A stretch of DNA of 64,000 nucleotides from a bacterium. Lineage in GTDB: Bacteria > Zhuqueibacterota > Zhuqueibacteria > Oceanimicrobiales > Oceanimicrobiaceae. The first letter of the stretch is position 1; each line of letters opens with the position of its first letter. The notes beneath the pieces are model-generated. The model was not told where the DNA came from. It ran no database searches and saw only the letters and a list, made by a program, of their open reading frames with translations. Positions 1-61,053 of the stretch are shown piece after piece. The DNA lies in contig JBHHXN010000010.1 in the NCBI GenBank assembly GCA_046757025.1, positions 1-64,000 of the forward strand, read 5' to 3'. A program made the translations under genes and the position numbers.

Positions 1-53
1 TTAAATACTGAATTCAGTAATAACCCCGTTTCTGAGCTAACTGGATAGCCGTA
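1..53. mobile_element. Right end of a family-D miniature TIR element, truncated by the window edge
   Basis: 52/53 nt identical to 28270-28322, including the TIR ctgagctaactggatagccgta. Confidence 0.85.
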
Positions 54-162
54 AGGAAAGTACCGTAAGTACTTGTTTTTTAGTCAAACTTTTTTCATGT
101 TTTGTGAAGTCCTATAGTCTTTAACAAATTTTGTTGTTTTTCAAAATGGTGACCATGACACG

Positions 163-987
163 ATGAAACTCGTGATAACCCTGGTCGTGGTAGCAGGACT
201 GTTGGTGCTGTTCATCCGGTTGATGGAAAACAAGCTCATCTTTTTTCCATTCAAATATCCACGTGGATACTGGCAGCCGGATTCTTTAGGGATGCAAGTC
301 GAAGAGTGTTTTTTCAACACAGCGGATGGACTGCGACTGCACGGTTGGCTTTTGCAGCGAAATTCCTCGGTGCCAACGCTCCTGTGGTGTCACGGCAACG
401 CCGGCAACATCACCGACCGCCTGGACAATTTAGCGCGACTCGCAAAATTGCCCCTGAATATTTTCATCTTCGATTACCGCGGCTATGGCAAAAGCGAAGG
501 CTCCCCGAACGAAGCCGGAGTATATCGTGACGCCGAGGCTGCTTTTGATTACTTAAATTCGCGAAAAGATATCGATGCGCAAAAAATCATCCTATTCGGA
601 CGCTCTTTAGGCGGCGCGGTAGCGGTAGATTTAGCTACCAAAAGACCCTGTGCCGCTGTGATTTTAGAATCCACTTTCACTTCAGCCAGAGACATGGCCA
701 AAGCGGCTTTCGGTCTCATTCCGATTCATTTAATCATTAAAACCAAATTCAATTCACTGGCAAAAATCCGCAACATTCAAGTACCGCTGCTCTGTTTTCA
801 TGGCAGCAGAGATAGTACCGTGCCATTTAAATTAGGTCGAAAACTGTTTGAGGCGGCAAATCAACCCAAAGAATTTTACCCCATCCAAAACGCTGACCAC
901 AATGACACTTACCTCGTCGGAGGCAGCGCGTATTTTGAGAAAATACAGGCTTTCATTGAATCGCAATTCTCCAATGATGCTCTTTAA
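163..987 (+). CDS. Alpha/beta hydrolase (ABHD13/BEM46-like) with N-terminal membrane anchor
   Basis: HGNAG, DYRGYGKSEG, GRSLGG nucleophile elbow, HGSRD, HND motifs. Confidence 0.9.
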   Translation: MKLVITLVVVAGLLVLFIRLMENKLIFFPFKYPRGYWQPDSLGMQVEECFFNTADGLRLHGWLLQRNSSVPTLLWCHGNAGNITDRLDNLARLAKLPLNIFIFDYRGYGKSEGSPNEAGVYRDAEAAFDYLNSRKDIDAQKIILFGRSLGGAVAVDLATKRPCAAVILESTFTSARDMAKAAFGLIPIHLIIKTKFNSLAKIRNIQVPLLCFHGSRDSTVPFKLGRKLFEAANQPKEFYPIQNADHNDTYLVGGSAYFEKIQAFIESQFSNDAL

Positions 988-1102
988 TGTTGCCACTCTG
1001 ATTGCAACCTTTCGTCACCGCTCATCGTAAAATTTTGTATCGAATTCGATTTTCCTTCAGGCTAAGAGTATCAAATTTAACAATTATTCAATAGGGTTCT
1101 AT

Positions 1103-1264
1103 ATGAAACAAAATGCCGTGATTGTGAACCTGTTGTTGTGGATTATTGCGATATTGGCGACTTTGTTCATCGTGGAAGAAAGCGGATTGTTCAAATATCT
1201 GGGGCCACTTTATTTTATCTGCATGATGGGTTCAACCATGGTGGTTGCGAAAACGAAAAAATAA
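1103..1264 (+). CDS. Putative 53-aa small membrane protein (below the ORF-track cutoff)
   Basis: Manual translation MKQNAVIVNLLLWIIAILATLFIVEESGLFKYLGPLYFICMMGSTMVVAKTKK; two hydrophobic segments and a basic tail; ends 34 nt before the next likely start. Confidence 0.55.
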   Translation: MKQNAVIVNLLLWIIAILATLFIVEESGLFKYLGPLYFICMMGSTMVVAKTKK

Positions 1265-1298
1265 TGTAAAATTCAACAATTTACGGGGAGGAAGTGTT

Positions 1299-2420
1299 TT
1301 GAAAAAAACGATTCGGTTCCTTACTTTTGTTTTATTTTTTACCGCAACAATTGAAATTCATTCTGTCGCTTCGTCAACGTTATCAAGCAAATCTGCTGCC
1401 GGGGACAGCCTCTCAAAAAAAAGAAACGGTTTTATTTTCATTCCCGCCCTGTTCTACACGCCGGAAACAAAAGTCGCTGGCGGTGTGTCGTTGATGTATT
1501 ATTTTCGCAGCGCCTCCAGTTCCCTCGAGAATCGTCCGTCCACGCTTTCGCCGACTTTTATTTACACCCAGCGCAAGCAAATTATCAGTCAGCTTTTCGC
1601 GGATTTTTACTGGCAGGATGAAACCTACCATTTACTAGCTGGCGGTGGATACATTAAATTTCCCGATAAGTTTTACAGCATCGGTCATTCCACCCCAAAA
1701 TCAGCTGAAGAAGATTATACGCCCCGAAAATATTTTTTTCTCCTCAACATGCAGAAAAAACTGCACCACGCCTGGCATGTGGGATTATTGTATGAAATTA
1801 CCGATACGAAAATCACCGAAACGGAGGAAAACGGACAGCTGTCCACTTCGCAGATTTTAGGGGCCGACGGCGGCATCGTGGGCGGCTTCGGACTGGTAAC
1901 CAATTGGGATTCGCGCGACAACATTTTCAATCCGACTCAAGGTGAATTTTATCAATTCTCAGCGACGTTCTTCAAAAGCCCGTTTGGAAGCGACTATGAT
2001 TTCAACCGATATAATTTTGATTTAAGAAAATATTTTCGCTTTCGATCCTCTGACGTTTTTGCCTTACAAGTATATATGAATTTTGTCACGGGCAAGCCGC
2101 CATTTCAAATGCTTTCGCTCATCGGTGGACAAAATTTGATGCGCGGCTATTATGAGGGCCGTTATCGCGATAAAAATCTGCTCATCTGGCAGAGCGAATA
2201 TCGTTTGCCGGTGTGGAAGCGTTTCGGTGTGGTGGCGTTTGCCGGCTTGGGCGATGTGGCCGCTAAACTGAGCGGCTTTGAAATCGATCGATTTAAATAT
2301 TCGTATGGGTGGGGGCTGCGTTATTTGTTCAGCCGAAATGAAGGTTTGAATATCCGATTCGATTTTGGATTCGGCAAAGATTCTTCTGGTTTTTATATCA
2401 CCCTGGGTGAAGCATTTTAA
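1299..2420 (+). CDS. Omp85/BamA-TamA family outer-membrane beta-barrel protein (no POTRA domains)
   Basis: MRGY lid-loop motif, C-terminal GEAF, signal peptide; TTG start at 1299 follows GGAGG (ORF track starts at 1245). Confidence 0.85.
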   Translation: MKKTIRFLTFVLFFTATIEIHSVASSTLSSKSAAGDSLSKKRNGFIFIPALFYTPETKVAGGVSLMYYFRSASSSLENRPSTLSPTFIYTQRKQIISQLFADFYWQDETYHLLAGGGYIKFPDKFYSIGHSTPKSAEEDYTPRKYFFLLNMQKKLHHAWHVGLLYEITDTKITETEENGQLSTSQILGADGGIVGGFGLVTNWDSRDNIFNPTQGEFYQFSATFFKSPFGSDYDFNRYNFDLRKYFRFRSSDVFALQVYMNFVTGKPPFQMLSLIGGQNLMRGYYEGRYRDKNLLIWQSEYRLPVWKRFGVVAFAGLGDVAAKLSGFEIDRFKYSYGWGLRYLFSRNEGLNIRFDFGFGKDSSGFYITLGEAF

Positions 2421-2500
2421 AAAAGATGTAACATTTTTACTTTTAACCTGTCTATTGGATCATGAAACTATCTGTCATATTGAATTTGAGGAGCGGCCAA

Positions 2501-3562
2501 ATGAAATATTCCAATTCGAAATTGATTTCCATTTTGACCTGTTTGCTTTTACTGGGCCTGCTCTGGGCATCTTGCGGAGAAAACGGTCAGGCAAAAAACG
2601 TAGATGAAACCGAAGAAAATGCGCTGTTAACCCCCGTGGAAGTTTCAAAAGTAACTCAAGATGAAATCTCAGCCTATTTGACCGGCACAGCCACGCTGGA
2701 GGCGGAGAACGAAGCCGAAGTGGTTGCCAAAATCTCGGAAATTGTGGAGGAGATACGGGTGGAAGAAGGCATGTTCGTCAAAAAAGGGCAAATCCTTGCC
2801 CGCCTGGACGCGGACATGCTGCGTATCGAATTACAGCAAACCCAGGCCGATTTAAACAAATTGCAAAACGATTTTGACCGCAACCAAGAGCTATTTAAAA
2901 AACGATTGATTTCAAAAGAAGAATTCCAAAATGTGCGTTTTCAATTTGAAGCGCAGAAAGCCGCCCTGGAGAAAGCCCGATTAAACTTAAATTACGCCAC
3001 TATCCACGCTCCCATTTCTGGCGTCATCGCCAAAAGACACATCAAGCCAGGGAATATGGTGAACCAAAACCAGCCGCTTTTTCGAATTGTGGATTTTAAC
3101 CACCTGATCGCTAATTTATTTGTACCAGAAGTGGATATTCAAAAAGTTCAAATCGGGCAAAAAGCGCTGCTCAAATTTGACGCCACCAACGGTTCAAGCT
3201 TTGAAGGCTATGTCGAACGCATCAACCCGGTGGTGGACCCCGCAAGCGGCACCGTAAAAGTAACCATTGCGGTGAATAAAGCCCGTTCTCACATCAAGCC
3301 GGGTATGTTTGCACGAGTTCAGATCGTTTACGACACCCATCCAAATAGTTTGCTCATTCCCAAACAAGCCCTGCTTTCAGAAGATGGCACGGAATTGGTT
3401 TACACCATTCAGGATTCCATTGCCATCAAGAAATTTGTGAAGACCGGCTACCGTTCGGAATCGATGATTGAAATTGTGGAGGGATTAACGGCAGGCGAAC
3501 AGGTAGTAGTCATCGGCCAAAACGGCCTAAAAGACAGCTCGAAAGTCGAAATCGTGCAATGA
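2501..3562 (+). CDS. RND efflux periplasmic adaptor (MFP), lipoprotein
   Basis: LLWASC lipobox, I.APISG, KPGMFARV; GAGGAG RBS before ATG at 2501. Confidence 0.92.
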   Translation: MKYSNSKLISILTCLLLLGLLWASCGENGQAKNVDETEENALLTPVEVSKVTQDEISAYLTGTATLEAENEAEVVAKISEIVEEIRVEEGMFVKKGQILARLDADMLRIELQQTQADLNKLQNDFDRNQELFKKRLISKEEFQNVRFQFEAQKAALEKARLNLNYATIHAPISGVIAKRHIKPGNMVNQNQPLFRIVDFNHLIANLFVPEVDIQKVQIGQKALLKFDATNGSSFEGYVERINPVVDPASGTVKVTIAVNKARSHIKPGMFARVQIVYDTHPNSLLIPKQALLSEDGTELVYTIQDSIAIKKFVKTGYRSESMIEIVEGLTAGEQVVVIGQNGLKDSSKVEIVQ

Positions 3563-3618
3563 GTGATTTCTTGAACAAGGGTGTTCCGGCAATTTCTGCG
3601 GAGGGCTTTTACGAATTA

Positions 3619-3773
3619 ACGCTTGAATGAAAACCCGAAAAATGCGCGTTTTACTACCCTCGTCGCAAAGGTGCCTCTTCGACAAAGCTCTGGCGCGGCT
3701 CCGCCGGGCCAAGCTGGAATTCACCCTCGGCCAGGAGACCTTCGGGAAGAATAGGTTGTTTTCGTTCACACAT
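3619..3773. mobile_element. Family-A miniature TIR element, copy 1
   Basis: Ends acgcttgaatgaaaac / gttttcgttcacacat; perfect 6-bp direct repeat gaatta (3613-3618, 3774-3779); body homologous to 22460-22612, 28324-28479 and 46418-46572. Confidence 0.85.
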
Positions 3774-3873
3774 GAATTACCGTTTGATCAACTCTCGACA
3801 AGATGCGATTTTGAGAACGCCTCCAAGTGAAGTATTTTCCCAATAATTCTGATAAAAATTTTCAAGGTTCAGT

Positions 3874-6800
3874 ATGAAAATCATAGATTTTTCAATTCGA
3901 CGCAGAGTCACCGTTTCCATGGTGACACTGGCCGTGGTTATTTTTGGAGCAGTGGCATTCAATCGATTAGCTGTGACTCTGCTGCCAAGTTTGACTTATC
4001 CCACTTTAACCATTCGCACCGATTACGCCGGCGCCGCTCCCATTGAAATCGAAAACTTGATCACCAAACCCATCGAAGAGGCCGTGGGCGTGGTCAAGAA
4101 TCTCATCGAGGTGCGCTCCGTTTCCCGCACCGGCCAGTCCGATGTGATTCTCGAATTTGAATGGGGCAGCAACATGGATTACGCCGGGCTGGACGTGCGC
4201 GAAAAGTTAGACGCTTTAAACCTGCCATTGGAAGCTAAAAAACCGCTGGTGCTGCGATTTGACCCGTCTCTGGATCCCATCGTGACTCTGGCTTTGCACC
4301 GCAAAAATTCGGAGGGAGGCCAAAGGTCCGAACACATGAAATTGGCCAAATTTGAACAAAAAGTTGCACGTTCAGATGAATTCCTCATCGATGAATCGAA
4401 TTTAAAATTTCTAAGAACTTTTTCCGAGGAGCAGCTCAAAAAAGAGCTTGAGTCCATTCCAGGTGTGGCGGCGGTGAAAATCAGTGGTGGATTGGAGGAA
4501 GAAATCCAGATCGAAGTTGACCAAGGTAAGTTAGCCCAGATAGGCATCTCCATCCAGGAAGTTGCCCAGCGCCTGCGTGGAGAAAATGTCAACCTTGCCG
4601 GCGGCAGTTTAAAGGAAGGCAGCCATCAATATCTGGTGCGCACGCTCAATCAATTCCGAACGGTGGATGAAATTCGCAATATGATTCTCAGAAGCCACGC
4701 CGGCTCAAACATCTACTTGAAAAATGTCGCTCGCGTCATCGAAGGCTTCAAAGAGCGCAAAGCCATCACCCGAGTGGATGGTCAGGAAGCTGTTGAAATC
4801 GCCATTTACAAAGAGGGAGATGCCAATACCGTGGCGGTAGCGAAAGCCTTGAGCAGCCGTTTGCATCGGCTCAACAAAATATTGCCCGCAGGCGCTTCGC
4901 TCAAAATGGTTTACAACCAGTCGATATTTATCGAAAACGCCGTAAACGAAGTAGTGGACGCGGCAGTCATCGGCGGCATTTTAGCTTTCTTTGTTTTATA
5001 CTTCTTTTTGCGAAATATCTGGAGTACCCTGATCATCTGTCTGGCCATTCCCATTTCGGTAATCGCGACATTTAACCTCATGTTTGGCGGGAATATTACG
5101 TTGAACATCATGTCGCTGGGGGGCATTGCTTTGGGCATCGGTATGCTGGTGGACAATTCCGTGGTGGTGCTGGAAAGCATTTTTCGGCATCGTGAAAAAA
5201 GCGGCACCATTGTGGAAGCTGCCCACACCGGTGCCAGTGAAGTTGGCATGGCGGTCATGGCCTCCACTCTCACTACCATTGCCGTGTTTTTTCCGCTGGT
5301 CTTTGTGAAAGGCATCGCCGGCCAGTTGTTTCGTGATCAGGCTCTGACCGTCACCTTCTCCTTGTTTGCATCTTTAGTGGTGGCCTTAACGCTTATTCCC
5401 ATGCTGGCTTCTCTGGGTGGTAAAAAGAGTCCGGCGTTGGAATTTAAAAACGAAACCCATGCCCCGTTGAAAAGTCGCAGCAAATTCGTACGCGGCCTTA
5501 AGCAATTTTTCCACTATCTGTTTTCGAAAATTCCTGTCTCTATTTTAACCTGGACGATTCGCCTTTCAAAAGGCCTATCTAAATTCATGAGGTGGCTGGT
5601 CAAACCCTTTGTTTCTGTGTTCGAAAAATCATACACCTTCATTGACCGATTTTATCCCCGACTTCTGAGGTGGTCTTTAAACCATAAAGCGGCCACTCTA
5701 GGAATTGCCGCAATTCTGTTTGTACTGAGTATGGGCCTGGTTCCAAAGTTAGGATTGCAGTTGATTCCACAGTTATCGCAGGGAGAATTTATCGTAGAAG
5801 TCAAGCTGCCGCCGGGCACGCCGTTAAATCAAACCGACCGGCTGATCGCGCGCATGCAAGAACGCGCTAAATCCAGCGAAATGATACACACCATGTTTTC
5901 GGTTGCCGGCACGGGCAATCGCCTGGACGCCAACCCGGAAGAGGGCGGTGAAAACTGGGGGGAGTTGCACATCAAAATGGTAACCGGCTCGGGCCGCAAG
6001 GACGAAGAGGCGTTGATGTCGGATTTGAGAAAGCGCTTTAAGCGTCTGGCCGGCGCAGAATATAAATTTTCCCGGCCGACTTTATTTAGTTTCCGAACCC
6101 CCATTGAAATTGAAATTGCTGGCTACGATTTAAAAGGATTAAAAAAAATATCCGACACCGTGGTGCGGAAATTAGAAGAAAATTCAAGATTCACGGATAT
6201 CAAATCCACCATGCAGGGCGGCTATCCCGAGATACAAATTTACTTCGACCGCGAAAGAATTGCCGCTTACGGATTGCAGGTGCCGGAAATTGCCCAGACC
6301 GTGGTCAATAAAGTCAAAGGCGAAATGGCAACGCGCTATTCCATGCGGGATCGCAAAATCGACGTGCTGGTCAGGGCGCGGGAGAGCGAGCGGGAATCCA
6401 TCGAAAACATCCGTAATTTGCTTGTGAATCCGGTCTATATGCCACCGCTCACACTGGCAGCGGTAGCGGATGTGCAAATGGAGATGGGACCCGGTGAAAT
6501 CCATCGCTCGGCCCAGCAGCGCGTGGCCTTGATTCGTGCCAATTTAATCGGTCACGATTTAGGCGCCGCCGCCGAGGAAATCAACGAAATCATTGGTCAA
6601 ATTTCCATACCTGAAGAATTCAGCATTCGCCTGGCTGGCCAGAGCAATGAAATGACGGTTTCCATTCAATCCCTGCGTCTGGCGTTAATTCTTGCGATAT
6701 TCTTGATCTATCTGGTAATGGCCTCGCAATTTGAATCACTGCTGCATCCTTTTGTGATCATGTTTACTATCCCCCTGGCATTGATCGGCGTGGTGCTGGC

Positions 6801-7155
6801 TCTACTGCTGACTGGCAACTCCATCAGCGTGGTGGTCTTGATCGGTCTGATAATGCTGGCCGGCATCGTGGTAAACAACGCCATTGTGCTGATCGATTAC
6901 ATCAATCAACTGCGAAAAAATGGATTGGCAAAATTGTCTGCCATAACCGACGCCGGGCAAGTGCGACTGCGGCCCATCCTGATGACGACCCTTACCACGA
7001 TTCTGGGATTGCTGCCTCTGGCGCTGGGTTTTGGGGAAGGCGTAGAAGTGCGGGCGCCCATGGCGATCACGGTTATCGGCGGACTGCTCGTTTCTACCTT
7101 GCTCACTCTGATCGTCATCCCAGTGATGTATTCCGTTGTCGACCGCAAAAATTAA
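3874..7155 (+). CDS. RND efflux permease subunit 1 (AcrB/MdtB-like)
   Basis: GMLVDNS, GIVVNNAI, RLRPILMT motifs; 1093 aa. Confidence 0.95.
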   Translation: MKIIDFSIRRRVTVSMVTLAVVIFGAVAFNRLAVTLLPSLTYPTLTIRTDYAGAAPIEIENLITKPIEEAVGVVKNLIEVRSVSRTGQSDVILEFEWGSNMDYAGLDVREKLDALNLPLEAKKPLVLRFDPSLDPIVTLALHRKNSEGGQRSEHMKLAKFEQKVARSDEFLIDESNLKFLRTFSEEQLKKELESIPGVAAVKISGGLEEEIQIEVDQGKLAQIGISIQEVAQRLRGENVNLAGGSLKEGSHQYLVRTLNQFRTVDEIRNMILRSHAGSNIYLKNVARVIEGFKERKAITRVDGQEAVEIAIYKEGDANTVAVAKALSSRLHRLNKILPAGASLKMVYNQSIFIENAVNEVVDAAVIGGILAFFVLYFFLRNIWSTLIICLAIPISVIATFNLMFGGNITLNIMSLGGIALGIGMLVDNSVVVLESIFRHREKSGTIVEAAHTGASEVGMAVMASTLTTIAVFFPLVFVKGIAGQLFRDQALTVTFSLFASLVVALTLIPMLASLGGKKSPALEFKNETHAPLKSRSKFVRGLKQFFHYLFSKIPVSILTWTIRLSKGLSKFMRWLVKPFVSVFEKSYTFIDRFYPRLLRWSLNHKAATLGIAAILFVLSMGLVPKLGLQLIPQLSQGEFIVEVKLPPGTPLNQTDRLIARMQERAKSSEMIHTMFSVAGTGNRLDANPEEGGENWGELHIKMVTGSGRKDEEALMSDLRKRFKRLAGAEYKFSRPTLFSFRTPIEIEIAGYDLKGLKKISDTVVRKLEENSRFTDIKSTMQGGYPEIQIYFDRERIAAYGLQVPEIAQTVVNKVKGEMATRYSMRDRKIDVLVRARESERESIENIRNLLVNPVYMPPLTLAAVADVQMEMGPGEIHRSAQQRVALIRANLIGHDLGAAAEEINEIIGQISIPEEFSIRLAGQSNEMTVSIQSLRLALILAIFLIYLVMASQFESLLHPFVIMFTIPLALIGVVLALLLTGNSISVVVLIGLIMLAGIVVNNAIVLIDYINQLRKNGLAKLSAITDAGQVRLRPILMTTLTTILGLLPLALGFGEGVEVRAPMAITVIGGLLVSTLLTLIVIPVMYSVVDRKN

Positions 7156-7187
7156 AATTCACGTATTATTTGAGTTGAGTTAGAAAT

Positions 7188-10100
7188 ATGAATATTTCCA
7201 GGACAGCGCTGCACAGACCCGTGACCACGGTTATGGTTTTTCTTTCCTTATTTCTATTGGGTGGCATCGCGAGCAGAATGCTTCCATTAGAATTTTTACC
7301 CGACGTCGATTTTCCGGGCGTCTTTATCAATTTTCCCTATCCCAATTCGACACCGAAAGAGGTCGAAGATTTGATTGCAATACCGGTTGAAGAAGTGCTC
7401 GGTACCATGAGCGGAATCAAACGGATGGATTCCTTTTCTGACGAAAACGGTCTCGGTATCAATTTGCAATTCAACTGGGGGGAAGATACCTCCATCAAAG
7501 CCATGGAAGCGAAAGAAAAAATTGAAAGTGTCTGGAATCAACTGCCGGCCGATCTGGAGCGCTATTTCGTGCTGAAATTCTCCTCCTCCGACATCCCGAT
7601 TATGAATTTGCGGCTCTCCTCTCAACGAGATCTCTCAAACAGTTATGATCTGCTGGACCGACATGTTAAGCGAAGAATCGAACGCATTCCGGGTGTGTCC
7701 AAGGTGGAACTGCACGGTGTAGAAAAAAAGGAAATTCTCATCGATTTGATGGCGGACCGCATTCTGGCGCATAAAGTAGATATCGGGCTGCTTCAACAAA
7801 AATTACGCAATTCCAACCTCATTTTTACAGCAGGACGCATTACAGACGGTCAAAAACGCTACAACGTAAGGCCGCTGGTGGAATTTCAGAGTCTGGAGGA
7901 AATCGAAAAATTGATTATCAACGAGCAGGGATTGCGCTTGAAAGATATCGCCAACCTGAAATACGATCATCCTGAATTAAACTACGGTCGGCATTTAGAT
8001 CGCAAATATGCCATCGGACTAGAGATTTTTAAAGAGTCTGGCGCCAACACTGTGGAAGTCGCCAGGCGTGTCATGAACGCCATCGCAGAAATCGAAAACA
8101 GCTCGGAAATGCAAGGTATCAAACTATATTTCATGGATAATGCAGCCGAAGGCATTATGTCATCCATCAATGAGCTGCTGAAATCCGGCATGTGGGGCGC
8201 GCTGTTTGCTGTTCTGGTTTTGTACTTCTTTTTGAGAAGAATCTCCACCACGCTGATTGTTGCCTTGGCCATTCCCTTTTCTTTGATCATCACCATGGGA
8301 TTCATGTATTTTTTAAACATGACTTTAAACATTCTCACCATGATGGGTTTGATGCTGTCGGTGGGTATGCTGGTGGACAACGCCGTCGTCATCACCGAGA
8401 GCATCTTCCGTCATCAGCAGCTTGGCGAGGAGCCCGCGCAAGCGACTATCATCGGCATCAAAGAAGTCGGGTTGGCCGTAACCGCAGCAACTTCCACCAC
8501 AGCCATCGTATTTCTACCATTCATCATGTCACCGGAAGGCGAAGTGGCGACCTACATGAAACACGTTTCTCTCACCATCGTCATTGCCCTGGCTGCCTCG
8601 CTGCTAATCGCGCAAACGCTCATTCCGCTGTTGACTTCAAAACTGCAATTTAAATCGTTTACTCACAAACAAACCGTCATCGAAAAAACCTCCGTGCACT
8701 ACGCAAAAATATTAAAATGGTCTCTGGAACACCCTGGCCTGACAACCTTGATTATTATTGGCATTGTCGCCAGTACCGCTTTACCCGTCATGAAGGTGAA
8801 AATCGATATGTTTCCAGACCGCGACGATCGGCGAATTTACTTGCGTTACCATGTCAATGGCAACTATCGTGTGGAGAAAGTGGAAGAAGCGGTGGATGTC
8901 ATTGAAGAATATTTGTATGACAATAAAAAGAAGTTTGATATCGAGTCCGTGTATTCGTACTACCAGAACGGCTATGCCATGTCCACGCTCATACTAACGG
9001 ACGAAGAGAAAGCCACAAAATCAGAAGCGGAATTGCGCAAAGAAATCGTCAAAGATTTGCCGAAAATTGCCATTGGCAAGCCCTCTTTTGAAAGAAGCGC
9101 TTCATCTGGCAGTGCCGAAAACATCAGCGTGCAATTATGGGGGGATTCCAGCGAGCTTTTGGCTGATTTGAGTAAGGACGCGGCCTGGCGGCTTTCAAAA
9201 ATTCCCGGTTTGAACGATGTGCGATCTTCGGCCGAGGCCGGCGACCGCGAAGTCCACATCAAAGTGAACCAGGAGGTGGCACAGAAACATCGATTTTCTG
9301 CTCAGGATGTGGGACAAATAGTTGCCGTGGCGTTGCGCGGCCAACAACTGCGACGCTTTAAAACACCCAGCGGGGAAATTGAAATGAAATTGCGCCTGCA
9401 GGACACAGACCGCGAAAATCTGGAGCAACTAAAAAGACTGGTTTTGTACGACGACGCCGGTAAACCAGTAGAATTGGCGACACTGGCAGATTTTAACTGG
9501 CGTAAAGGGCCGCAAAGCATTCATCGTGTGGACCGGCAAACCACCATGGAAGTCACTGCGGCTTTGGAAGAGCTCAGCGTCAACGAAGCTAGAAAATATA
9601 TTGAAAAACAACTGGCTAATTACGAATTACCTCCTGGGTATTCCTGGGGATTCGGTCGCCGTTTTGAACGAGAAGATGAAACCGCGAAGATTATGCTGAT
9701 AAACATGGTTCTCGCTCTGGTTTTGATCTATTTCGTCATGGCTTCTTTGTTTGAATCGCTGGTTTATCCCGCTGCCATCTGGACTTCCATCATATTTGCC
9801 ATCGTCGGCACGTTCTGGTTTTTCTGGATAACCGGCACCACCTTCTCCCTGATGGCGTGGATTGGCGTATTCATTCTCATCGGGATCGTGGTAAATAACG
9901 GAATCGTACTGATCGATCATATCAATCAGCTCAGAGCCGAAGGGCTGCCCAGGAAGCAAGCCATCATCGACGCAGCTTTGCACCGCATCCGCCCAATTTT
10001 GATGACCACGGCCACCACTGTGCTCGGATTGATTCCGTTGTCCATCGGCAAAACGCTCATCGGCGGGGATGGCCCACCGTATTTTCCCATGGCACGTTCC

Positions 10101-10223
10101 ATTATGGGCGGCCTGATCTTTTCCACGGTGGTCACTTTAATTATCCTGCCAACAATTTATGTGGGTTTGGACAATTTACGAACTTGGGGAAGAAATGCTT
10201 TACAGCAAGCGCGGGGGAATTAA
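7188..10223 (+). CDS. RND efflux permease subunit 2 (AcrB/MdtC-like)
   Basis: GMLVDNA, GIVVNNGI, RIRPILMT motifs; tandem paralog of the upstream gene. Confidence 0.95.
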   Translation: MNISRTALHRPVTTVMVFLSLFLLGGIASRMLPLEFLPDVDFPGVFINFPYPNSTPKEVEDLIAIPVEEVLGTMSGIKRMDSFSDENGLGINLQFNWGEDTSIKAMEAKEKIESVWNQLPADLERYFVLKFSSSDIPIMNLRLSSQRDLSNSYDLLDRHVKRRIERIPGVSKVELHGVEKKEILIDLMADRILAHKVDIGLLQQKLRNSNLIFTAGRITDGQKRYNVRPLVEFQSLEEIEKLIINEQGLRLKDIANLKYDHPELNYGRHLDRKYAIGLEIFKESGANTVEVARRVMNAIAEIENSSEMQGIKLYFMDNAAEGIMSSINELLKSGMWGALFAVLVLYFFLRRISTTLIVALAIPFSLIITMGFMYFLNMTLNILTMMGLMLSVGMLVDNAVVITESIFRHQQLGEEPAQATIIGIKEVGLAVTAATSTTAIVFLPFIMSPEGEVATYMKHVSLTIVIALAASLLIAQTLIPLLTSKLQFKSFTHKQTVIEKTSVHYAKILKWSLEHPGLTTLIIIGIVASTALPVMKVKIDMFPDRDDRRIYLRYHVNGNYRVEKVEEAVDVIEEYLYDNKKKFDIESVYSYYQNGYAMSTLILTDEEKATKSEAELRKEIVKDLPKIAIGKPSFERSASSGSAENISVQLWGDSSELLADLSKDAAWRLSKIPGLNDVRSSAEAGDREVHIKVNQEVAQKHRFSAQDVGQIVAVALRGQQLRRFKTPSGEIEMKLRLQDTDRENLEQLKRLVLYDDAGKPVELATLADFNWRKGPQSIHRVDRQTTMEVTAALEELSVNEARKYIEKQLANYELPPGYSWGFGRRFEREDETAKIMLINMVLALVLIYFVMASLFESLVYPAAIWTSIIFAIVGTFWFFWITGTTFSLMAWIGVFILIGIVVNNGIVLIDHINQLRAEGLPRKQAIIDAALHRIRPILMTTATTVLGLIPLSIGKTLIGGDGPPYFPMARSIMGGLIFSTVVTLIILPTIYVGLDNLRTWGRNALQQARGN

Positions 10224-10246: not shown

Positions 10247-10408
10247 GTGACTATTCAGCCCAAACCGCCATGCTGAACATGTTACCGGAAGTATGTGCAC
10301 GAAGCCTCTTGCGAACCGGCCAAGAGATTCATCGCACATCCGCACCAGTAAAGATGAGCAAAGAATCCGGAACTTGTACTCAGAATGCCCCCCCCGCTGA
10401 ATGGTTAC
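10247..10408. mobile_element. Family-E miniature TIR element, copy 1
   Basis: TIR gtgactattcagc / gctgaatggttac; perfect 8-bp TSD aaagaaat (10239-10246, 10409-10416); body is the reverse complement of about 43845-44016. Confidence 0.85.
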
Positions 10409-10420
10409 AAAGAAATGAAT

Positions 10421-15280: not shown

Positions 15281-15393
15281 TAAATGTTAACCTCCTGAAG
15301 AACGATATATTTAATATGAATGGCCAGTTGTAACAAGTGGCCTTTTCCGACTTGTTTCGGGACTCCGGCTGAAGCGTCTTTTTTCATGGTGAG

Positions 15394-15535
15394 GGGCTGT
15401 CCCAAAAGTCCCAAAATACACACAACTTCATGCTGAGTCCCGAAGTAAATTTGGGAAAGCATGTCTGTTTTTAATCAACTGACAACACACTTCGACCCCA
15501 CTCAGGGTGAAGCAAAACGATTTTAGGGACAGCCC
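15394..15535. mobile_element. Family-C miniature TIR element in the secD leader
   Basis: TIR gggctgtcccaaaa / ttttagggacagccc; internal cttcatgctgagtccc and ttcgaccccactcagggtgaag shared with family B. Confidence 0.7.
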
Positions 15536-15598
15536 GCTTTACTAATCCATCAAAACAGATTTTCATCTGGTCATTCATACATTTAATTAACAGAGCGC

Positions 15599-22079: not shown

Positions 22080-22207
22080 GTAACTCTTCAGCTAGTTTTG
22101 TCATCCCGGAAAGGCCTTGTTGGTTTTATAGCACTCTCTAGATCAGCCAATTAATTCTAAACTCAAAAAAGATCCCGCAATTGCGGGATGACAGGCTGAA
22201 TAGTTAC
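22080..22207. mobile_element. Element with family-E ends and a different REP cargo
   Basis: TIR gtaactcttcagc / gctgaatagttac; flanks attttttt / attttttc (7/8 match to an 8-bp TSD); internal tgtcatcccg ... gatcccgcaattgcgggatgaca. Confidence 0.75.
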
Positions 22208-22451: not shown

Positions 22452-22459
22452 ATTAACTA

Positions 22460-22612
22460 GTCTGAACGAAAACGACCCTATCTTCCCGAATGCCTCCTGG
22501 CCGAGGATGAATTCACGCTTGGCTCGGTGCGGCCTTTCCTGAGCTTTGTCGAAGGGACGCCTCAGCAAAGAGGTTCTTAAATCGCGCATTTCTCGAGTTT
22601 TCGTTCAGACAC
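22460..22612. mobile_element. Family-A miniature TIR element, copy 2 (opposite orientation to copy 1)
   Basis: TIR gtctgaacgaaaac / gttttcgttcagac; body homologous to the other A copies. Confidence 0.88.
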
Positions 22613-22621: not shown

Positions 22622-22789
22622 CTTAGTGCTCCATTTCAGAAATGGTTGTCGGATTCACAAGAGATAATAGCAGCTACCGATCTTCACCCTTCTACTCCGC
22701 TCTGGGTGAAGATCATGGTTTTCCGATTTTAAATGGGGCTCAGCATGAAGATAGGTACCCGACAATCAATTTTGAAATGGAATACTAAG
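22622..22789. mobile_element. Family-B miniature TIR element, copy 1
   Basis: Ends cttagtgctccatttcag / ttgaaatggaatactaag; internal hairpin gatcttcaccc...gggtgaagatc; inverted homolog at 42923-43091. Confidence 0.88.
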
Positions 22790-27659: not shown

Positions 27660-27926
27660 TGCAGAGCAGCGGGTTCCTCCACCATAAAATCCGACTAGCT
27701 ACATAAATTAAAGTACTCCAGTTTCGTAGTTGTGTAATCACCTGTTTTTTAGGTATTTTTCTTAACTTGAATTCACATCATTCTATATAATCACAATCGT
27801 TAAAAAATTCCAAAATAGGAGTAGGCAGCCATTTATTTGAAAAGTCCCTTTTAAATCGACTTTTTGAGTAAATATTAAAAAGGCGTTTTATACCAGAACA
27901 CCCGATTCTCAAATAACCACTTTGAT

Positions 27927-28006
27927 TTTAACGTAAAGGCCGCTGAGAGCACAGTGAGCTTCGCACAGAGAGGGTTTTCTCTGCGCCTTTGCGCCTCGGC
28001 GTTAAA
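27927..28006. repeat. Degenerate palindromic repeat of the aacgc-ag-ag-gcgc-ag-ag type
   Basis: tttaacgtaaaggccgctgag ... ctctgcgcctttgcgcctcggcgttaaa, an imperfect inverted repeat in AT-rich DNA. Confidence 0.6.
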
Positions 28007-28101
28007 TAAAAATAGTTAAAAGTGTCCATACAACCTCACTCACTCTAATTTTGGAAGAGTCATGTAATCTCTTTAAAATTAACTGCTTAAATTGTGATTA
28101 A

Positions 28102-28322
28102 TACGGTTATCCAGTTAACTCAGCTTGAACTTATAAAAACTCTTTTCGATTGATATAAACCTTAATCGTCATGCCCGCGAAGGCGGGCATCCAGAGGTTT
28201 CGACCGCCTCAAATCTTTGTTTCTAAATGGATTCCCGCTTTCGCGGGAATGACTGACTATAGCATTCTTTTAAATACTGAATTCAGTAATAACCCCGTTT
28301 CTGAGCAAACTGGATAGCCGTA
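28102..28322. mobile_element. Family-D miniature TIR element, complete, nested in a family-A end
   Basis: 22-bp TIR tacggttatccagttaactcag / ctgagcaaactggatagccgta; perfect 9-bp TSD tgtgattaa (28093-28101, 28323-28331); internal inverted REP pair at 28167-28253. Confidence 0.92.
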
Positions 28323-28323
28323 T

Positions 28324-28479
28324 GTGATTAAACGAAAACCACCCGATCTTCTCGAAGGCCTCCTGGCCGAGGGTGAATGCCTGCTTGGCTTGGTGGAGCC
28401 TGTCCAGAGCTTTGTCAAAGGGACGCCCTCGCGAAGAGATTATTTATATCGCGCATTTCTTGAGTTTTCGTTCAGGCGC
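28324..28479. mobile_element. Family-A miniature TIR element, copy 3 (left end interrupted by the D element)
   Basis: gtgattaaacgaaaac ... gttttcgttcaggcgc; outer flanks taaatt (28088-28093) / taaata (28480-28485). Confidence 0.88.
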
Positions 28480-28553
28480 TAAATATGAATTTATTAGCTT
28501 GACCTTATTTGTTTTTGTTTACATTATCTAAGTGCGAAACTTGAGTAAAAGTA

Positions 28554-42922: not shown

Positions 42923-43091
42923 CTTAGAATTCCATTTCAAAATTGATTGTCGGATACCTATCTTCATGCTGAGTCCCAATTCAAATTCGGAAAACCATGA
43001 TCTTCACCCTGAGCGGAGTCGAAGGGTGAAGATCGGTAGCTGCTATTATCTCTTGTTAACCCTACAACCATCTCTGAAAAGGAGCACTAAG
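42923..43091. mobile_element. Family-B miniature TIR element, copy 2 (inverted)
   Basis: Reverse-complement homolog of 22622-22789; same ctta / taag ends. Confidence 0.88.
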
Positions 43092-43124
43092 GAGACTGTG
43101 TAAAAACATGCAGACTACGCTTCT

Positions 43125-43147
43125 GTCATCCCGCAACCGCGGGATTT
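43125..43147. repeat. Solitary GTCA-type REP palindrome
   Basis: tgtcatcccgcaaccgcgggatt, same family as 22171-22193. Confidence 0.65.
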
Positions 43148-43844: not shown

Positions 43845-44016
43845 CGGGGGTTGTCATTCTGAGCACAAACTCCGGATTCTTTGCTCATCTCCACAGGTGC
43901 GGATGTGCGAAAAACCTCTTAGCCGGTTCGCAAGATGCTTCGCGCGGATACTTCCAGTAAGATGCTCAGCACTGGAGAGTTTGCGCTCAGCATGACGGTT
44001 TCGGCTGAACAGTTAC
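43845..44016. mobile_element. Family-E miniature TIR element, copy 2 (inverted, left end degenerate)
   Basis: Homologous to 10247-10408; right end ggctgaacagttac; internal gtcattctgagc ... gctcagcatgac. Confidence 0.8.
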
Positions 44017-46417: not shown

Positions 46418-46572
46418 GTGTCTGAACGAAAACTCGAGAAATGCGTGATTTAATAAGTGCTTCTCGAAGGCGTCCCTTCGACAAAACTCAGGACAGGCCC
46501 CGTCGTGCCGTGCAGAAATTCACCATCGGCCAGGAGGCCTTCGGGAAGATGGAGTCGTTTTCGGTCAATCAC
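46418..46572. mobile_element. Family-A miniature TIR element, copy 4
   Basis: gtgtctgaacgaaaac / gttttcggtcaatcac; lies between convergent genes; flanks ttatta / gaatta. Confidence 0.88.
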
Positions 46573-48023: not shown

Positions 48024-48118
48024 GTGCTTGAACGAAAACGACCCTATCTTCACGAAGTCCTCCTGGCCGACGGTGAATTCCTTCTTGGCTCGGCGGGGCC
48101 GTTCCTGAACTTTGTCGA
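48024..48118. mobile_element. Family-A element, truncated copy 5
   Basis: gtgcttgaacgaaaacgaccctatctt...tttgtcga matches copy 2; second TIR absent. Confidence 0.8.
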
Positions 48119-48218
48119 TGGCTCATTTTCTTGTGGCTGAATTGACTCAGCCACTGCCACACACATCCTTTCATAAATGACTTACCAACGACATAGCAAA
48201 CTAAAAATAAGCATCACT

Positions 48219-51195: not shown

Positions 51196-51231
51196 ACACT
51201 GCAAGATCGGAATTCGTTTTGAATTGCCAGA

Positions 51232-56675: not shown

Positions 56676-56687
56676 AGATTGCGGAGG

Positions 56688-56761
56688 TACGCCCGGAAGG
56701 ATTCGAACCCTCAACCCTCTGATCCGAAGTCAGATGCTCTGTCCAGTTGAGCTACGAGCGC
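56688..56761 (-). tRNA. tRNA-Arg(UCG)
   Basis: Cloverleaf GCGCTCG...CGGGCGT-A; anticodon loop CT-TCG-GA; GGTTCGAATCC T-arm. Confidence 0.95.
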
Positions 56762-56768
56762 ATGGTTG

Positions 56769-56839
56769 CTGGGGTGCAGGGATTCGAACCCCGATTACAC
56801 GATCCAGAGTCGCGTGTCCTGCCGTTGGACGACACCCCA
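56769..56839 (-). tRNA. tRNA-Gln(CUG)
   Basis: TGGGGTG...CACCCCA-G; anticodon loop CT-CTG-GA. Confidence 0.95.
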
Positions 56840-56857
56840 GATTCACACCTCAACATA

Positions 56858-58318: not shown

Positions 58319-58389
58319 AAAAACCTTGCGTAAAAATTAACCATCGCAGAATCCATTAAATCTTGAAAAAAATTTAAAGCATAAAAAAG

Positions 58390-58477
58390 CGGAGAGGCTG
58401 GGATTCGAACCCAGGGTAGACACAAAGCCTACAACGGCTTAGCAGGCCGCTGCCTTCAACCACTCGGCCACCTCTCC
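58390..58477 (-). tRNA. tRNA-Ser(GCU)
   Basis: GGAGAGG...CCTCTCC-G; loop CT-GCT-AA; long variable arm. Confidence 0.95.
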
Positions 58478-58524
58478 GAATAGAATCGATTTTTTGAAGC
58501 ACTATCAAATTTTTCAAACAACAG

Positions 58525-58608
58525 CGGAGGGCGAGGGATTCGAACCCCCAAGGGCGTACACCCGGCGGTTTTCAAGACCGCTGTCTTACCAATTAGATCT
58601 AGCCCTCC
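58525..58608 (-). tRNA. tRNA-Ser(UGA)
   Basis: GGAGGGC...GCCCTCC-G; loop CT-TGA-AA; long variable arm. Confidence 0.93.
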
Positions 58609-58630
58609 TTAAAATAAATCAGGCGGCCAA

Positions 58631-58659
58631 AATATAAACATTTTTCTCAAATATGTCAA
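58631..58659 (-). promoter_or_regulatory. Sigma70 promoter of the tRNA-Ser/gltX unit with GC-rich discriminator
   Basis: TTGACA-N17-TATATT followed by ttggccgcc. Confidence 0.75.
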
Positions 58660-58689
58660 CTGCTTTTTGAAACCAATTCTAGCAATTGA

Positions 58690-59772
58690 TTACACTTTTA
58701 CAAAATATTTTCCGGCCAATTGCTTGACTAAATTTTTCAATTCTAAAGACAACAGCACAGCCAGCGCTTTTGCAGTGTTTTGATTTAATTTTAAGGCAAG
58801 TGCATCGATATGTATGGGTTCATGCGACAAAAAAGAGAACACTTTTTTTTCGTCATCATTTAAATCGATATCCTCATGGCTGGTCTGCTTTCTTTGCTGA
58901 AACAACGGTAATTGTGGCTGCAGTTCTTCAAGAATGTCATCTACCGAAGCAACCAGTTTGGCACCCTGTTTAATGAGCGCATTTGTGCCGACACTGTTCG
59001 GGCTGTCGATATTGCCGGGCACCGCAAATACTTCACGGTTTTGCTCCACAGCCATGGCCGCGGTAATGAGGGCGCCACTTTTCATGCCGGCTTCGATGAC
59101 TAACGTGCCCAAACTCATACCGCAAATAATTCGATTCCTGCGAGGAAAATTCATCCAGTCCGGTTTCGCCCCCATGGGGTATTCCGAAAGGATGGCGCCA
59201 CTCTCAGCAATCCTCTCTGCAAGATTTTTATTCTCATAAGGATAAATTACATCCGCGCCCGAACCCAAAATAGCCAGCGTTCGCACCCCTGATTTTAAAG
59301 CAGTATTGTGCGCCAGAGTATCTATGCCGTAGGCCAAACCACTGACGATTGTGAAGCCTTGATTGGCCAATTCGGCAGTCAATTTTTCAGTCATGATTCT
59401 ACCGTAATTGCTCGGGGAACGAGTACCAACGATTCCGATAGCAAAATTATCACTTTGAAGCAAAGTGCCACGAATGAACAAAAGGACCGGAGGATCAAAA
59501 ATCTGTTTCAGCGGCTCAGGGTATTCATTATCCCAAAAAGTGATCAACCGGACGCCGCAGTTTTGCATTTTTTCAATTTGTAAACGCGCATTTTCCTGGC
59601 CATCATATTCGGCAATGTTTTCCGCGGTTTTTTGACCAACCACCGAAGCCAAACGATCGAATGAAGCCTGAAAGACATTTTGAGGAGAGCCAAATTTGCT
59701 GATGAGCGCCCGCAATTTATTGGGCCCGACCCCTGGAACGAAATGCAGCCTTAGCAACGCTTGAAGGTCCAT
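58690..59772 (-). CDS. dprA: DNA-processing protein DprA
   Basis: IVGTR, VSGLAYGID, FPRRNRII, SGALITA, EVFAVPG motifs. Confidence 0.97.
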   Translation of the reverse strand: MDLQALLRLHFVPGVGPNKLRALISKFGSPQNVFQASFDRLASVVGQKTAENIAEYDGQENARLQIEKMQNCGVRLITFWDNEYPEPLKQIFDPPVLLFIRGTLLQSDNFAIGIVGTRSPSNYGRIMTEKLTAELANQGFTIVSGLAYGIDTLAHNTALKSGVRTLAILGSGADVIYPYENKNLAERIAESGAILSEYPMGAKPDWMNFPRRNRIICGMSLGTLVIEAGMKSGALITAAMAVEQNREVFAVPGNIDSPNSVGTNALIKQGAKLVASVDDILEELQPQLPLFQQRKQTSHEDIDLNDDEKKVFSFLSHEPIHIDALALKLNQNTAKALAVLLSLELKNLVKQLAGKYFVKV

Positions 59773-59787
59773 TGGTGGCTTTACATT

Positions 59788-60780
59788 TTATGATTTTTCT
59801 TCATCAACGGTTCGCAGCATTTTCCAGATTAAATCCTTCAATTCCGACAACCCTTCACCAGTAAAACTCGATATTTTACAGACCGGCTGGTTGCCGTCAT
59901 TTTTCAATACACTCAAATCAACTTCCACACCGATATCGATTTTTGACAGCGCAATGATATGAGGTCGATCCAACAAATTTGCATTGTAGTTTATCAGTTC
60001 ATTATTTAAGGTCAGAAAATCAGTCTTTAAATCCTCGCTGTTACAATCAATTAAGTACACCAGAATTTTTGTTCTCTCAATATGGCGCAAAAATTCTATG
60101 CCCAAACCTTTTCCAGAATGCGCTCCTTCGATCAAGCCGGGAATGTCGGCCATGACAAAGCTGCCAAACTCACGGTAATTCACGATTCCTAAATTAGGTT
60201 TCAACGTGGTGAAGGGATAATCGGCAATTTTAGGCGTAGCAGCTGAAAGTTTTGATAAGAGGGTGGACTTACCGGCGTTGGGCGCTCCAACCAATCCCAC
60301 ATCGGCGATCAATTTGAGCTCCAACTCAAGAATTTTTTCTTCTCCAAATTCACCTTTCTCCCAGGTGCGAGGGGCTTGGTTAGTGGCGCTGACAAACCGT
60401 GCATTGCCGCGTCCACCTTTGCCGCCCTTCGCCACCAGAATTCTTTGACCTGCCGTAACTAAATCCCCCAAAAGCTCGCCGGTTTCATAATTTTTAACCA
60501 ACGTTCCAACCGGTACCCGAATGAATATATCCTTGCCGTTTTTACCATGCTTATTGCTGCCCTTGCCATGCTCAGCTCGCTTGGCTCTGAAATTGGGATG
60601 ATAATGGAAATCGAGCAGGGTAGAGAGCTTGTCATCGGCTATTAAGATGACATCTCCACCTTTACCACCATCACCGCCATCCGGTCCGCCTTTGGGATTG
60701 TATTTTTCCCGCCGGAAACTCAAACACCCACTGCCGCCATCACCGGATTTTACACGTATTTTAGCATGATCGACAAACAT
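59788..60780 (-). CDS. obgE: GTPase ObgE/CgtA
   Basis: GGPDGGDGG, G.PNAGKS, YPFTT, DIPG motifs. Confidence 0.98.
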   Translation of the reverse strand: MFVDHAKIRVKSGDGGSGCLSFRREKYNPKGGPDGGDGGKGGDVILIADDKLSTLLDFHYHPNFRAKRAEHGKGSNKHGKNGKDIFIRVPVGTLVKNYETGELLGDLVTAGQRILVAKGGKGGRGNARFVSATNQAPRTWEKGEFGEEKILELELKLIADVGLVGAPNAGKSTLLSKLSAATPKIADYPFTTLKPNLGIVNYREFGSFVMADIPGLIEGAHSGKGLGIEFLRHIERTKILVYLIDCNSEDLKTDFLTLNNELINYNANLLDRPHIIALSKIDIGVEVDLSVLKNDGNQPVCKISSFTGEGLSELKDLIWKMLRTVDEEKS

Positions 60781-60813
60781 TGGTACGGCACTACCCGAAT
60801 CGTGGTCTATTTA

Positions 60814-60945
60814 GTGATTGACCGAAAACAGCTTTTTCATGTCATTCCTGCAAGTTTTTAGCCGGAATCTCTTGCCTGAAATGAGGAGATTCCAGCACAA
60901 AAGATCGCTGGAATGACATAAAGAATCGAGTTTTCGGTCAATCAC
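60814..60945. mobile_element. Element with family-A ends and an unrelated REP-doublet cargo
   Basis: Perfect 16-bp TIR gtgattgaccgaaaac / gttttcggtcaatcac; perfect 6-bp TSD tattta; internal gtcattcc...ggaatct and agattcc...ggaatgac. Confidence 0.92.
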
Positions 60946-61053
60946 TATTTAGGAAAATTAAAATGGATTAGTAACTTAAATGTGAATTACTCGGTACGGA
61001 AGGGACGTTCAAACGAATTCTAATCAAATATCAGTTGATAAATAAATTTCATT

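Follow-up and report, generated by a model that had tools for sequence, protein, structure and literature searches.

Palindromic hairpin doublets as cargo of mini-transposons with several types of insertion sequence ends in a Zhuqueibacterota genome

Elements of the window

The window is a stretch of 64,000 nucleotides of contig JBHHXN010000010.1, from a bacterium of the phylum Zhuqueibacterota, and holds 14 elements with ends of five types (A to E), the complete ones being 128-221 bp long. Like MITEs in general they have terminal inverted repeats, are shorter than 500 bp and contain no transposase. A preliminary description had counted about 14 intergenic elements in five end-families, and all five end types are found at the places it gave. 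An Rfam search of the window returned four tRNAs and nothing else.

Elements with ISNCY-type ends carry two kinds of cargo. A1 (3619-3773, + strand) is a worn MITE with an untagged palindromic core and an exact 6-bp flanking repeat, while A2 (22458-22612, -) has the same type of core, enlarged by an inserted 25-bp hairpin, together with one worn end and a flanking repeat that is inverted. The untagged core is also found in A3 (28324-28479, -) and A4 (46418-46572, +), with one and two mismatches in the flanking repeat, respectively, and A5 (48024-48121, -) is a truncated copy of this subfamily with a single end (left half). A6 (60814-60945, +) contains a GTCA-tagged doublet and is flanked by an exact 6-bp duplication. 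B1 (22626-22785, +) has hairpins with TTCA tags between IS630-type ends some 30 bp long, and is flanked by CTTA and TAAG; B2 (42927-43087, -), with ends of the same type, is 91% like it. C1 (15394-15535, +) consists of IS1182-type ends around a TTCA-tagged doublet, without a duplication. The IS1595-type ends of D1 (28102-28322, +) enclose a head-to-head NTS/CGTC-1 doublet (28167-28254, no strand assigned), both arms of which fit the published SRM pattern, and the exact 9-bp duplication of D1 overlaps the left end of A3. D0 (1-53, +) is the right end of a D1-type MITE, 98% identical to 28270-28322, the rest of which is cut off by the start of the contig. Among the elements with IS66-type ends, E1 (10247-10408, +) has a GTCA-tagged doublet and an exact 8-bp duplication, E2 (22080-22207, +) has an arm from position 22168 that fits the SRM pattern and an 8-bp repeat with one mismatch, and E3 (43846-44016, -) is of the E1 type with one end worn.

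Three host elements around these MITEs had gone unnoticed in the preliminary description. C1 sits in one hairpin arm of a family I MITE (15322-15572, +), uninterrupted paralogues of which appear as joints in contigs assembled from sequencing runs. A3 and D1 interrupt a host element (27715-28546, +) that measures about 430 bp and has inverted ends of its own; uninterrupted copies of it lie on contigs C8, C85, C122 and C70. B2 is placed between the left end of a J element (42869) and an N remnant (43092-43145).

Ends and cognate insertion sequences

The five types of ends are those of DDE insertion sequences (IS), and sequence comparison supports their assignment to ISNCY (A, NF033593), IS630 (B), IS1182 (C), IS1595 (D) and IS66 (E). 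That the inverted repeats were of the DDE type and came from several IS families had been proposed from the window, and each of the five indeed bounds full elements in other genomes. Of 167 genomes from the phylum, 44 contain the exact A end, and the reversed pattern occurs at most once per strand. A-type ends bound three of the four ISNCY transposases in the family that score above the cut-off of 325 bits (422-540 bits), one of them with an exact 6-bp duplication. Nine elements of 1.27-1.47 kb among 120 metagenome loci have B ends; three of their proteins were tested and all match IS630, one of them over the cut-off. Ends one base off C are found at 3 of 30 IS1182 loci, a 982-bp IS1595 element carries D ends, and among 30 IS66 loci three pair a transposase above the cut-off with neighbouring E-type ends that show no more than two mismatches, while the ends at a fourth match more loosely. 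At least eight further end families in the genome have the same cargo types, which brings the total to at least 13; for F ends, no full IS was found among 14 loci from other genomes. The D end has no match in viral contigs, and matches of D elements to plasmid records are confined to the cargo. The C end occurs at three viral loci, one of which is a pair spanning 1773 bp in which no ORF reaches 380 aa.

In the assembly itself (94.8% complete, 374 contigs) no intact cognate transposase was found for IS66, IS1182, IS1595 or ISNCY, which counts against copying by transposases: the searches for IS66, IS1182 (Pfam) and IS1595 were empty, and of ISNCY there is only a remnant of the 3' part, which has an A right end, on contig C83. 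Five DDE_Tnp_1 matches were considered as cognates and rejected, none of them lying near A-E ends. As no intact cognate gene was found in the assembly, the transposase would be supplied in trans.

Target duplications and empty sites

Direct repeats at the borders of the elements have lengths that are specific to the end family and are far more frequent than in re-paired controls, in agreement with the lengths first suggested for A, D and E. Exact 6-bp repeats flank 48 of 172 A pairs genome-wide (re-paired flanks gave a mean of 10.1 and a maximum of 21 in 500), 9-bp repeats with at most one mismatch flank 23 of 30 D pairs (0.8 expected), and 8-bp repeats flank 12 of 24 E pairs (0.5 expected). 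The 6-bp duplications of families F and H also exceed re-paired controls. The idea that A and F elements are generally bordered by inverted instead of direct duplications was discarded, these being present at only 2 of 172 and 1 of 48 pairs. B elements do not show the plain TA duplication that had been thought possible; their flanks are CTWA and TWAG, and among the 17 pairs in this genome the same three bases are duplicated in six and inverted in four, any B target duplication being weak. C elements have no duplication (at best 2 of 20), nor have the IS1182 elements examined, and the sole full IS1595 element and the IS66 elements examined likewise lack one. The exact duplications at just 48 of 172 A pairs and their absence for C count against the view that the cargo rides in transposed elements.

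Empty sites exist within the genome as paralogues, that is, as repeat copies that lack the element. For D, deletion of the element and one duplication in silico gives back an uninterrupted paralogue at C243 (98.75%, 16 copies), C259 (97.5%) and C180; paralogous empty sites are likewise found for A at C11 and C253, and for both E and H at C129, self-hits and tandem neighbours having been left out of the tally. No orthologous empty allele was seen among the joints listed from the contigs of four sequencing runs of a single study, a further point against the riding of cargo. A joint of 28092 to 28489, which corresponds to the uninterrupted host element of about 430 bp, is present in three of the four runs, and one contig of run X4 departs from the window sequence at 22461.

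It might be argued that the outer inverted repeats are a mere part of large REP/BIME palindromes, or an artefact of assembly, a proposition that we find scarcely credible. Contigs do break at the elements, B elements are flanked inconsistently and C elements lack a duplication, and the passages of Di Nocera et al. that bear on this describe REP dimers within longer palindromes rather than within named transposons (PMC3733652). However, every end type bounds full transposase genes elsewhere and the duplications far exceed the re-paired controls, the empty paralogues miss exactly the element and one duplication, and independent contigs run across E1 and E2. The argument is refuted for A, D and E.

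Identity and confinement of the cargo

The cargo mostly consists of hairpin doublets with the tags on the outside, of the CGTC-REP/NTS-SRM kind. Tag, stem of 8-9 bp, short loop, CCA tail and head-to-head dimer, the features of CGTC REPs, were all found in doublets, and the D1 doublet matches repeats of Neisseria, Azospirillum and sphingomonads. The range of cargo is wider than CGTC REPs: TTCA-tagged and untagged cargo was not assigned to any published CGTC REP family, and the untagged palindromic core defines the largest A subfamily, with 67 of 128 clustered elements and four of the five complete A elements of the window. The initial impression that most cargoes are GTCA- or TTCA-initiated palindromes captured the CGTC-type cargo and missed the core of this subfamily.

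REP cargo without inverted ends, which had been named as an observation that would speak against riding, is rare. The SRM pattern, which fits F cargo as well as the arms in D1 and E2, has 94 matches in the genome, of which 58 lie in end pairs, eight beside one end and four at contig edges; the remaining 24 are unbounded, compared to 27 expected by chance from the control. This count is the unbiased one and covers one arm type, whereas the 100 of 145 tag-outside doublets located within end pairs is a biased figure because the doublet patterns were written from MITE cargo. A free-standing position with diverse flanks, which is typical of CGTC REPs but not strictly defining, is not the rule for the doublets of this genome.

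Selection for RNA structure offers another way to account for such interiors: deletion-derived MITEs could have been retained for the effect of their hairpins at gene ends, as terminators or as stabilisers of RNA, with the likeness to REPs as a by-product. The interiors do fold strongly: in other genomes 30 of 36 A interiors have z < -2, compared to 4 of 16 subterminal IS segments, and just 7 of 344 elements fall within a long ORF. Yet the interiors match known REPs in sequence while REP tags occur in 0 of 16 subterminal IS segments, and in free intergenic DNA the elements have a density of 0.37 per kb in convergent, 0.40 in tandem and 0.39 in divergent gaps (crude ORF calls). Placement as terminators was dropped since the density shows no bias towards convergent gaps, and retention for RNA structure is regarded as highly improbable.

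Spread of the elements and pairing of ends with cargo

Amplification by riding in MITEs is supported by D1, which has 13 copies at different sites that are 96-100% alike and the interior of which reaches a depth of 416 compared to about 13 for single-copy DNA. Genome-wide searches placed 13 of 15 copies of the D1 doublet in D pairs and 11 of 12 copies of the A6 doublet in A pairs. The earlier proposal that ends and cargo assort independently is therefore overstated: the same ends do carry differing cargo, but each cargo of the window that was searched stays with its own ends throughout the genome, which implies that the pairings are rare founding events. It had similarly been proposed that REPs either ride in MITEs or insert into them; the 13 copies of D1 speak for riding, and the insertion of whole doublets was not borne out. 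A third relation, absent from the preliminary description, is the insertion of MITEs into REP arms and into other MITEs: five of 30 D sites fall in a REP-arm motif compared to 0.65% of random sites, and nests of MITEs are common, some involving three element families.

The elements are non-coding mini-transposons which combine the ends of five IS families with doublet cargo. It is likely that they are copied by transposases and that new pairings arise by nesting and the wear of inner ends. A unit of ends plus cargo would be copied around the genome by the matching transposase acting in trans. Since doublets are found almost only inside IS-type ends they have probably spread as passengers, and this would explain how the repeats become numerous although no enzyme is dedicated to them. 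New pairings probably form when one element lands in another and the inner ends wear away; such erosion after nesting, or gene conversion at the A-rich inner edge that the ends share, could be the main route, as alignments of a few elements suggest. The likeness between families spans tag to tag (89.6% over 96 nt for A and G) and, between A1 and C, continues through the linker as far as the inner edge of the end. In other families, A elements retain a relic of the inner N end, and genome G014 has composite A-over-C elements at two sites.

Small GIY-YIG genes may be the source of the doublets. A 463-bp E element consists of a broken GIY-YIG gene between two hairpins, is flanked by an 8-bp duplication and has an empty site, and a form with a 266-bp deletion is also present. 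Most small GIY-YIG genes of the genome are broken and carried between IS66-type ends, and a second hairpin-GIY-YIG cassette has 30-31 nt (97%) in common with G cargo. Doublets might accordingly arise when hairpin-gene-hairpin cassettes with small GIY-YIG, Ssn-like genes lose their middle part by deletion, a course seen in one series. A 135-bp E element was rejected as a direct deletion product of the 463-bp element, the two aligning at one end only.

The doublets could instead be mobile themselves, a single-strand nuclease of the Ssn or RAYT type moving them preferentially into short empty MITEs with hairpin-forming ends and so creating new pairings, whether or not these are transposed afterwards. 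SsnA cleaves upstream of the tag at a distance of a few bases (PMC11893778), the likeness between families often ends 0-5 nt from the tags, and these come as near as 2-3 nt to the inner edge of the end in F and E. Single hairpins of 23-30 nt have moreover joined arm loops without any IS end (F of 121 versus 147 bp, A of 130 versus 155 bp). The genome also possesses an intact 98-aa GIY-YIG gene (PF01541, 64.6 bits) with GTCA hairpins on both sides and four free doublets beside it on C173, further free doublets lying on C325. However, copy number tracks clonal units of ends plus cargo with fresh duplications, and a family of empty precursors was not found: only 38 of 428 end pairs are 105 bp or shorter, mostly with remnants of arms (judged partly by eye), and the ten J copies that form an empty family lack a nested MITE rather than a doublet. 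A single nuclease would also leave unexplained why palindromes of unrelated types, and other small genes, are found between the same ends. Self-mobility of whole doublets is therefore considered unlikely. Under passenger transport a small nuclease would be dispensable for genome-wide spread and may move single hairpins into hairpin loops.

More tentatively, IS ends plus a palindromic doublet might be a general recipe for the birth and success of MITEs, in which hairpin cargo is actively favoured and REPs of every kind ride unrelated DDE transposases. Hairpins might help very short elements to join their ends, or a nuclease might install them. This somewhat doubtful extension would, if true, provide the missing vehicle of CGTC REPs across many phyla and make DDE, Ssn and RAYT enzymes one nested guild of parasites.

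Comparison with known systems

All of the parts are already known, and one MITE holding a REP has been published. QMITE2 of Coxiella burnetii measures 150-190 bp, has terminal inverted repeats and direct repeats of 7-11 bp and contains a REP that is an IS target, and its short forms are bare REPs (PMC5896051). It is described there as a single family with a GTAG REP, whereas the present genome has at least 13 end families that are nested in one another and have in common a small set of doublet types, most of them CGTC-tagged. No paper was found on REP doublets as the common cargo of several MITE families, although most subscription papers lay outside the search and supplements may list such elements, and the pertinent passages of reviews and a census (PMC3184786, PMC10969869, PMC11602168) do not describe them.

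CGTC REPs are characterised by a GTC tag, a stem of 8-9 bp, a short loop, a CCA tail and head-to-head dimers, and are presented in the sections concerned as lacking a dedicated transposase (Di Nocera et al. 2013, PMC3733652). The same sections report dimers within longer palindromes in Halothiobacillus and Anabaena, propose a broad spectrum of transposases as movers and leave unanswered how such repeats can increase in number with no transposase of their own. Most of those repeats have diverse flanks, while here nearly all are inside IS-derived ends with duplications. As outgroup doublets are free-standing in three of four cases, riding is not the route of all CGTC REPs and does not explain their spread in lineages of that kind.

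The arms of D1 fit both the NTS consensus and the SRM pattern of the Ssn system, and GTCA-tagged hairpins bracket small single-domain GIY-YIG genes here too; these flanking hairpins miss the published pattern (Chenal et al. 2025, PMC11893778), which has no match within 500 bp of any of the six GIY-YIG genes tested. The main text of that paper contains neither 'MITE' nor 'terminal inverted', and the parts that treat hairpin mobility leave it open. For one lineage the present genome offers a concrete and testable answer, in that hairpins would multiply as cargo of DDE mini-transposons; this departs from the usual view of the MITE interior as the leftover of a deleted IS, and the end families, cargo types and nesting order are clear enough for assays to be designed. 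The repeats flanking a RAYT-like gene on C220 differ from the doublet REPs. In REPINs, inverted-REP doublets derived from gene-flanking repeats are the repeated unit; the doublets described here are distinguished by DDE ends and duplications at their borders. Mobile insertion cassettes such as MIC231 have IS231 ends without a transposase around a passenger gene, measure about 700 bp to 3 kb and are moved in trans (PMC6199540). The 463-bp E element, which lies outside the window, is built in the same way on a smaller scale, with IS66-type ends and a hairpin-flanked nuclease pseudogene as its passenger.

Hairpin cargo in MITE end families

The pattern of hairpin cargo, mostly doublets with outer tags, within several MITE end families is real. 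The window opens contig C10 of an assembly of 5.96 Mb (374 contigs, 94.8% complete), and the four sequencing runs containing its DNA are hydrothermal-vent metagenomes from a single study. The 14 window elements of the preliminary description were confirmed at their positions, and genome-wide the end families A to E form pairs of less than 500 bp in numbers of 178 (A), 17 (B), 20 (C), 30 (D) and 24 (E). Against re-paired controls, exact flanking repeats occur at 48 of 172 A pairs (10.1 expected), repeats with at most one mismatch at 23 of 30 D pairs (0.8 expected) and repeats at 12 of 24 E pairs (0.5 expected). In the same comparison of own-genome pairs the B repeats are ambiguous and no target duplication was found for C. 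The B flanks read CTWA/TWAG with the middle base often unduplicated, both in this genome and at loci L152-L216, full-length IS630-like elements included; either a mis-joined assembly or an unusual cut is possible. Elsewhere in the window, four tRNA genes lie on the minus strand (56688-56839 and 58390-58607), and adjacent long ORFs of 1093 and 1011 aa at 3874-10223, alike to 70-75% in places, give the impression at the sequence level of paired RND-type transporter subunits.

Many hairpin arms appeared free while only A to E were known; around such arms lie additional end families (F 48 pairs, G 14, H 9, I 13, J 8, K 8 and L 1), together with about 50 N elements and a further end family represented by the host element of the window (27715-28546). 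With 13 end types considered, 94 matches to the published SRM pattern (Chenal et al. 2025, PMC11893778) comprise 58 within a pair, 8 next to a single end and 4 at contig edges, the other 24 being unbounded, compared with 27 chance matches in the reversed genome, so that REP cargo does not mostly lack terminal inverted repeats. Among 145 doublets, a count biased by search patterns derived from MITE cargo, 100 lie within pairs and 17 show a single matching end; 3 fall at edges, and the remaining 25 lack a matching end. About ten of these 25 have worn ends by eye and five form clearly free clusters. The N elements of this genome insert in the middle of one short palindromic repeat; their left and right linkers are mosaic, as if recombined through the shared doublet.

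Insertion-sequence origin of the ends

ISNCY transposases (NF033593) are bounded by A ends in three related genomes, in one with an exact 6-bp duplication; a fourth above the cut-off has other ends, and in the own genome an ISNCY 3' remnant is followed by an A end. The D end, seen repeatedly in genomes of candidate division KSB1, delimits an IS1595 element of 982 bp at one of 46 loci. IS66 transposases are flanked by E ends at three of 30 loci and by looser matches at a fourth, and IS1182 has ends one base off C ends at three of 30 loci, in whose flanks no duplication was seen. Among 120 metagenome loci B ends enclose nine elements of 1.27-1.47 kb; all three of the proteins tested match IS630, one of them passing the cut-off. 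A search of the assembly for cognate transposases of the ISNCY, IS66, IS1182 and IS1595 types found no intact one; in general, multi-copy insertion sequences often collapse in short-read assemblies. At L042 (genome G017, contig C278) a second left end adjoins a full ISNCY element, with one shared 6-bp repeat between them; tandems with a common duplication are also seen among A and F MITEs.

Unit of spread

For D, A, E and H, taking out the element along with one copy of its duplication regenerates intact paralogous sequence, and the host element of the window runs on uninterrupted in four further copies, as it does in three of the four runs. D1 (28102-28322), a D element, has thirteen copies that are 96-100% alike, and the depth of its interior is about 30 times single-copy. 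Genome-wide, every window cargo keeps its own ends, short single arms excepted. Ends together with their cargo are therefore what spreads, and the independent assortment of the two proposed earlier was overstated. A D1 element at contig C65:25204-25424 has an exact 9-bp duplication and lies in coding-like DNA with two uninterrupted paralogues.

Nature and distribution of the cargo

The D1 interior resembles repeats of Neisseria, Azospirillum and sphingomonads by sequence match, is consistent with the NTS consensus, and matches the published SRM pattern in both arms. It is the CGTC-1 REP of Di Nocera et al. (PMC3733652). The remaining cargo types have the tag-outside doublet plan in common and differ in their stems; one carries a TTCA tag, and the commonest A subfamily holds a palindrome without a tag. 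Shortened hairpins of 23-30 nt inside REP-arm loops are a recurrent format in F, A, G and N cargo, independent of IS ends.

Small GIY-YIG genes between arms of the same kinds are present in the own genome, including an intact 98-aa gene amid four free doublets (C173) and a broken cassette sharing 30-31 nt with G cargo (C259). The published SRM pattern was not matched by the arms beside these genes, which are therefore termed Ssn-like. E ends hold a 463-bp GIY-YIG cassette, of which several copies are worn and one form has a 266-bp deletion. They also enclose a presumably GxxExxY-like gene remnant and a palindrome of probable heptamer repeats (C13:53531-54187, C123:13539-14320, C271:818-1024). 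A further small GIY-YIG gene (C59:26963-27172) lies between a tRNA-like sequence and a repeat resembling a tRNA 3' end, with no GTCA hairpins.

Of 167 genomes in the phylum, 44 contain the exact A end. A interiors taken from other genomes fold with z < -2 in 30 of 36 cases, against 4 of 16 for subterminal segments of IS. Elsewhere, B and D ends hold different palindrome types, presumably RAYT-like and C-run, or none. Four doublets were found outside the phylum, one within an inverted-repeat pair in Manganitrophus and three free. No preference of the elements for convergent intergenic gaps was found.

Nesting and new pairings

Nests are common (D inside A, C and REP arms; A inside E and N; E inside A; N inside J; C inside I) and include a triple nest of E over C over D on C167. 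D sites fall in a REP-arm motif in 5 of 30 cases compared with 0.65% of random sites. The host element, an AT-rich stretch of 430 bp that has inverted ends of its own and occurs in up to 30 partial copies, serves as a landing pad for A, D, E and H insertions, with A at the identical spot in three copies. C1 (15394-15535) appears to have taken the place of the top of a hairpin arm in its host I element; at 15534, directly after its right end, the window's strain lacks 10 bases that three of the four runs contain.

A-over-C composites occur at two sites in another genome (G014), and the doublet found here in N ends is also found in A ends of five elements from other families, which still carry a remnant of the inner N end. 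Between the window element A1 and C, the shared sequence takes in the linker and reaches the A-rich inner edge of the ends. The nests, composites, relics and shared linker favour nesting, followed by erosion or conversion, as the way in which new pairings of ends and cargo may arise, as inferred from few alignments. However, cross-family likeness often ends 0-5 nt from the tags, SsnA is reported to cut just upstream of the tag (PMC11893778), and single hairpins are gained in arm loops without IS ends, all of which count against this route. A pool of empty doublet precursors was not found among short elements.

Relation to known systems

MITEs, CGTC REPs, Ssn cassettes and MICs are already known kinds. 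REP cargo common to several MITE families was not found described in a literature search that lay mostly outside subscription papers. Di Nocera et al. (PMC3733652) report REP dimers within longer palindromes and leave the vehicle of CGTC REPs open, and QMITE2 (PMC5896051) is a published MITE that contains a REP.
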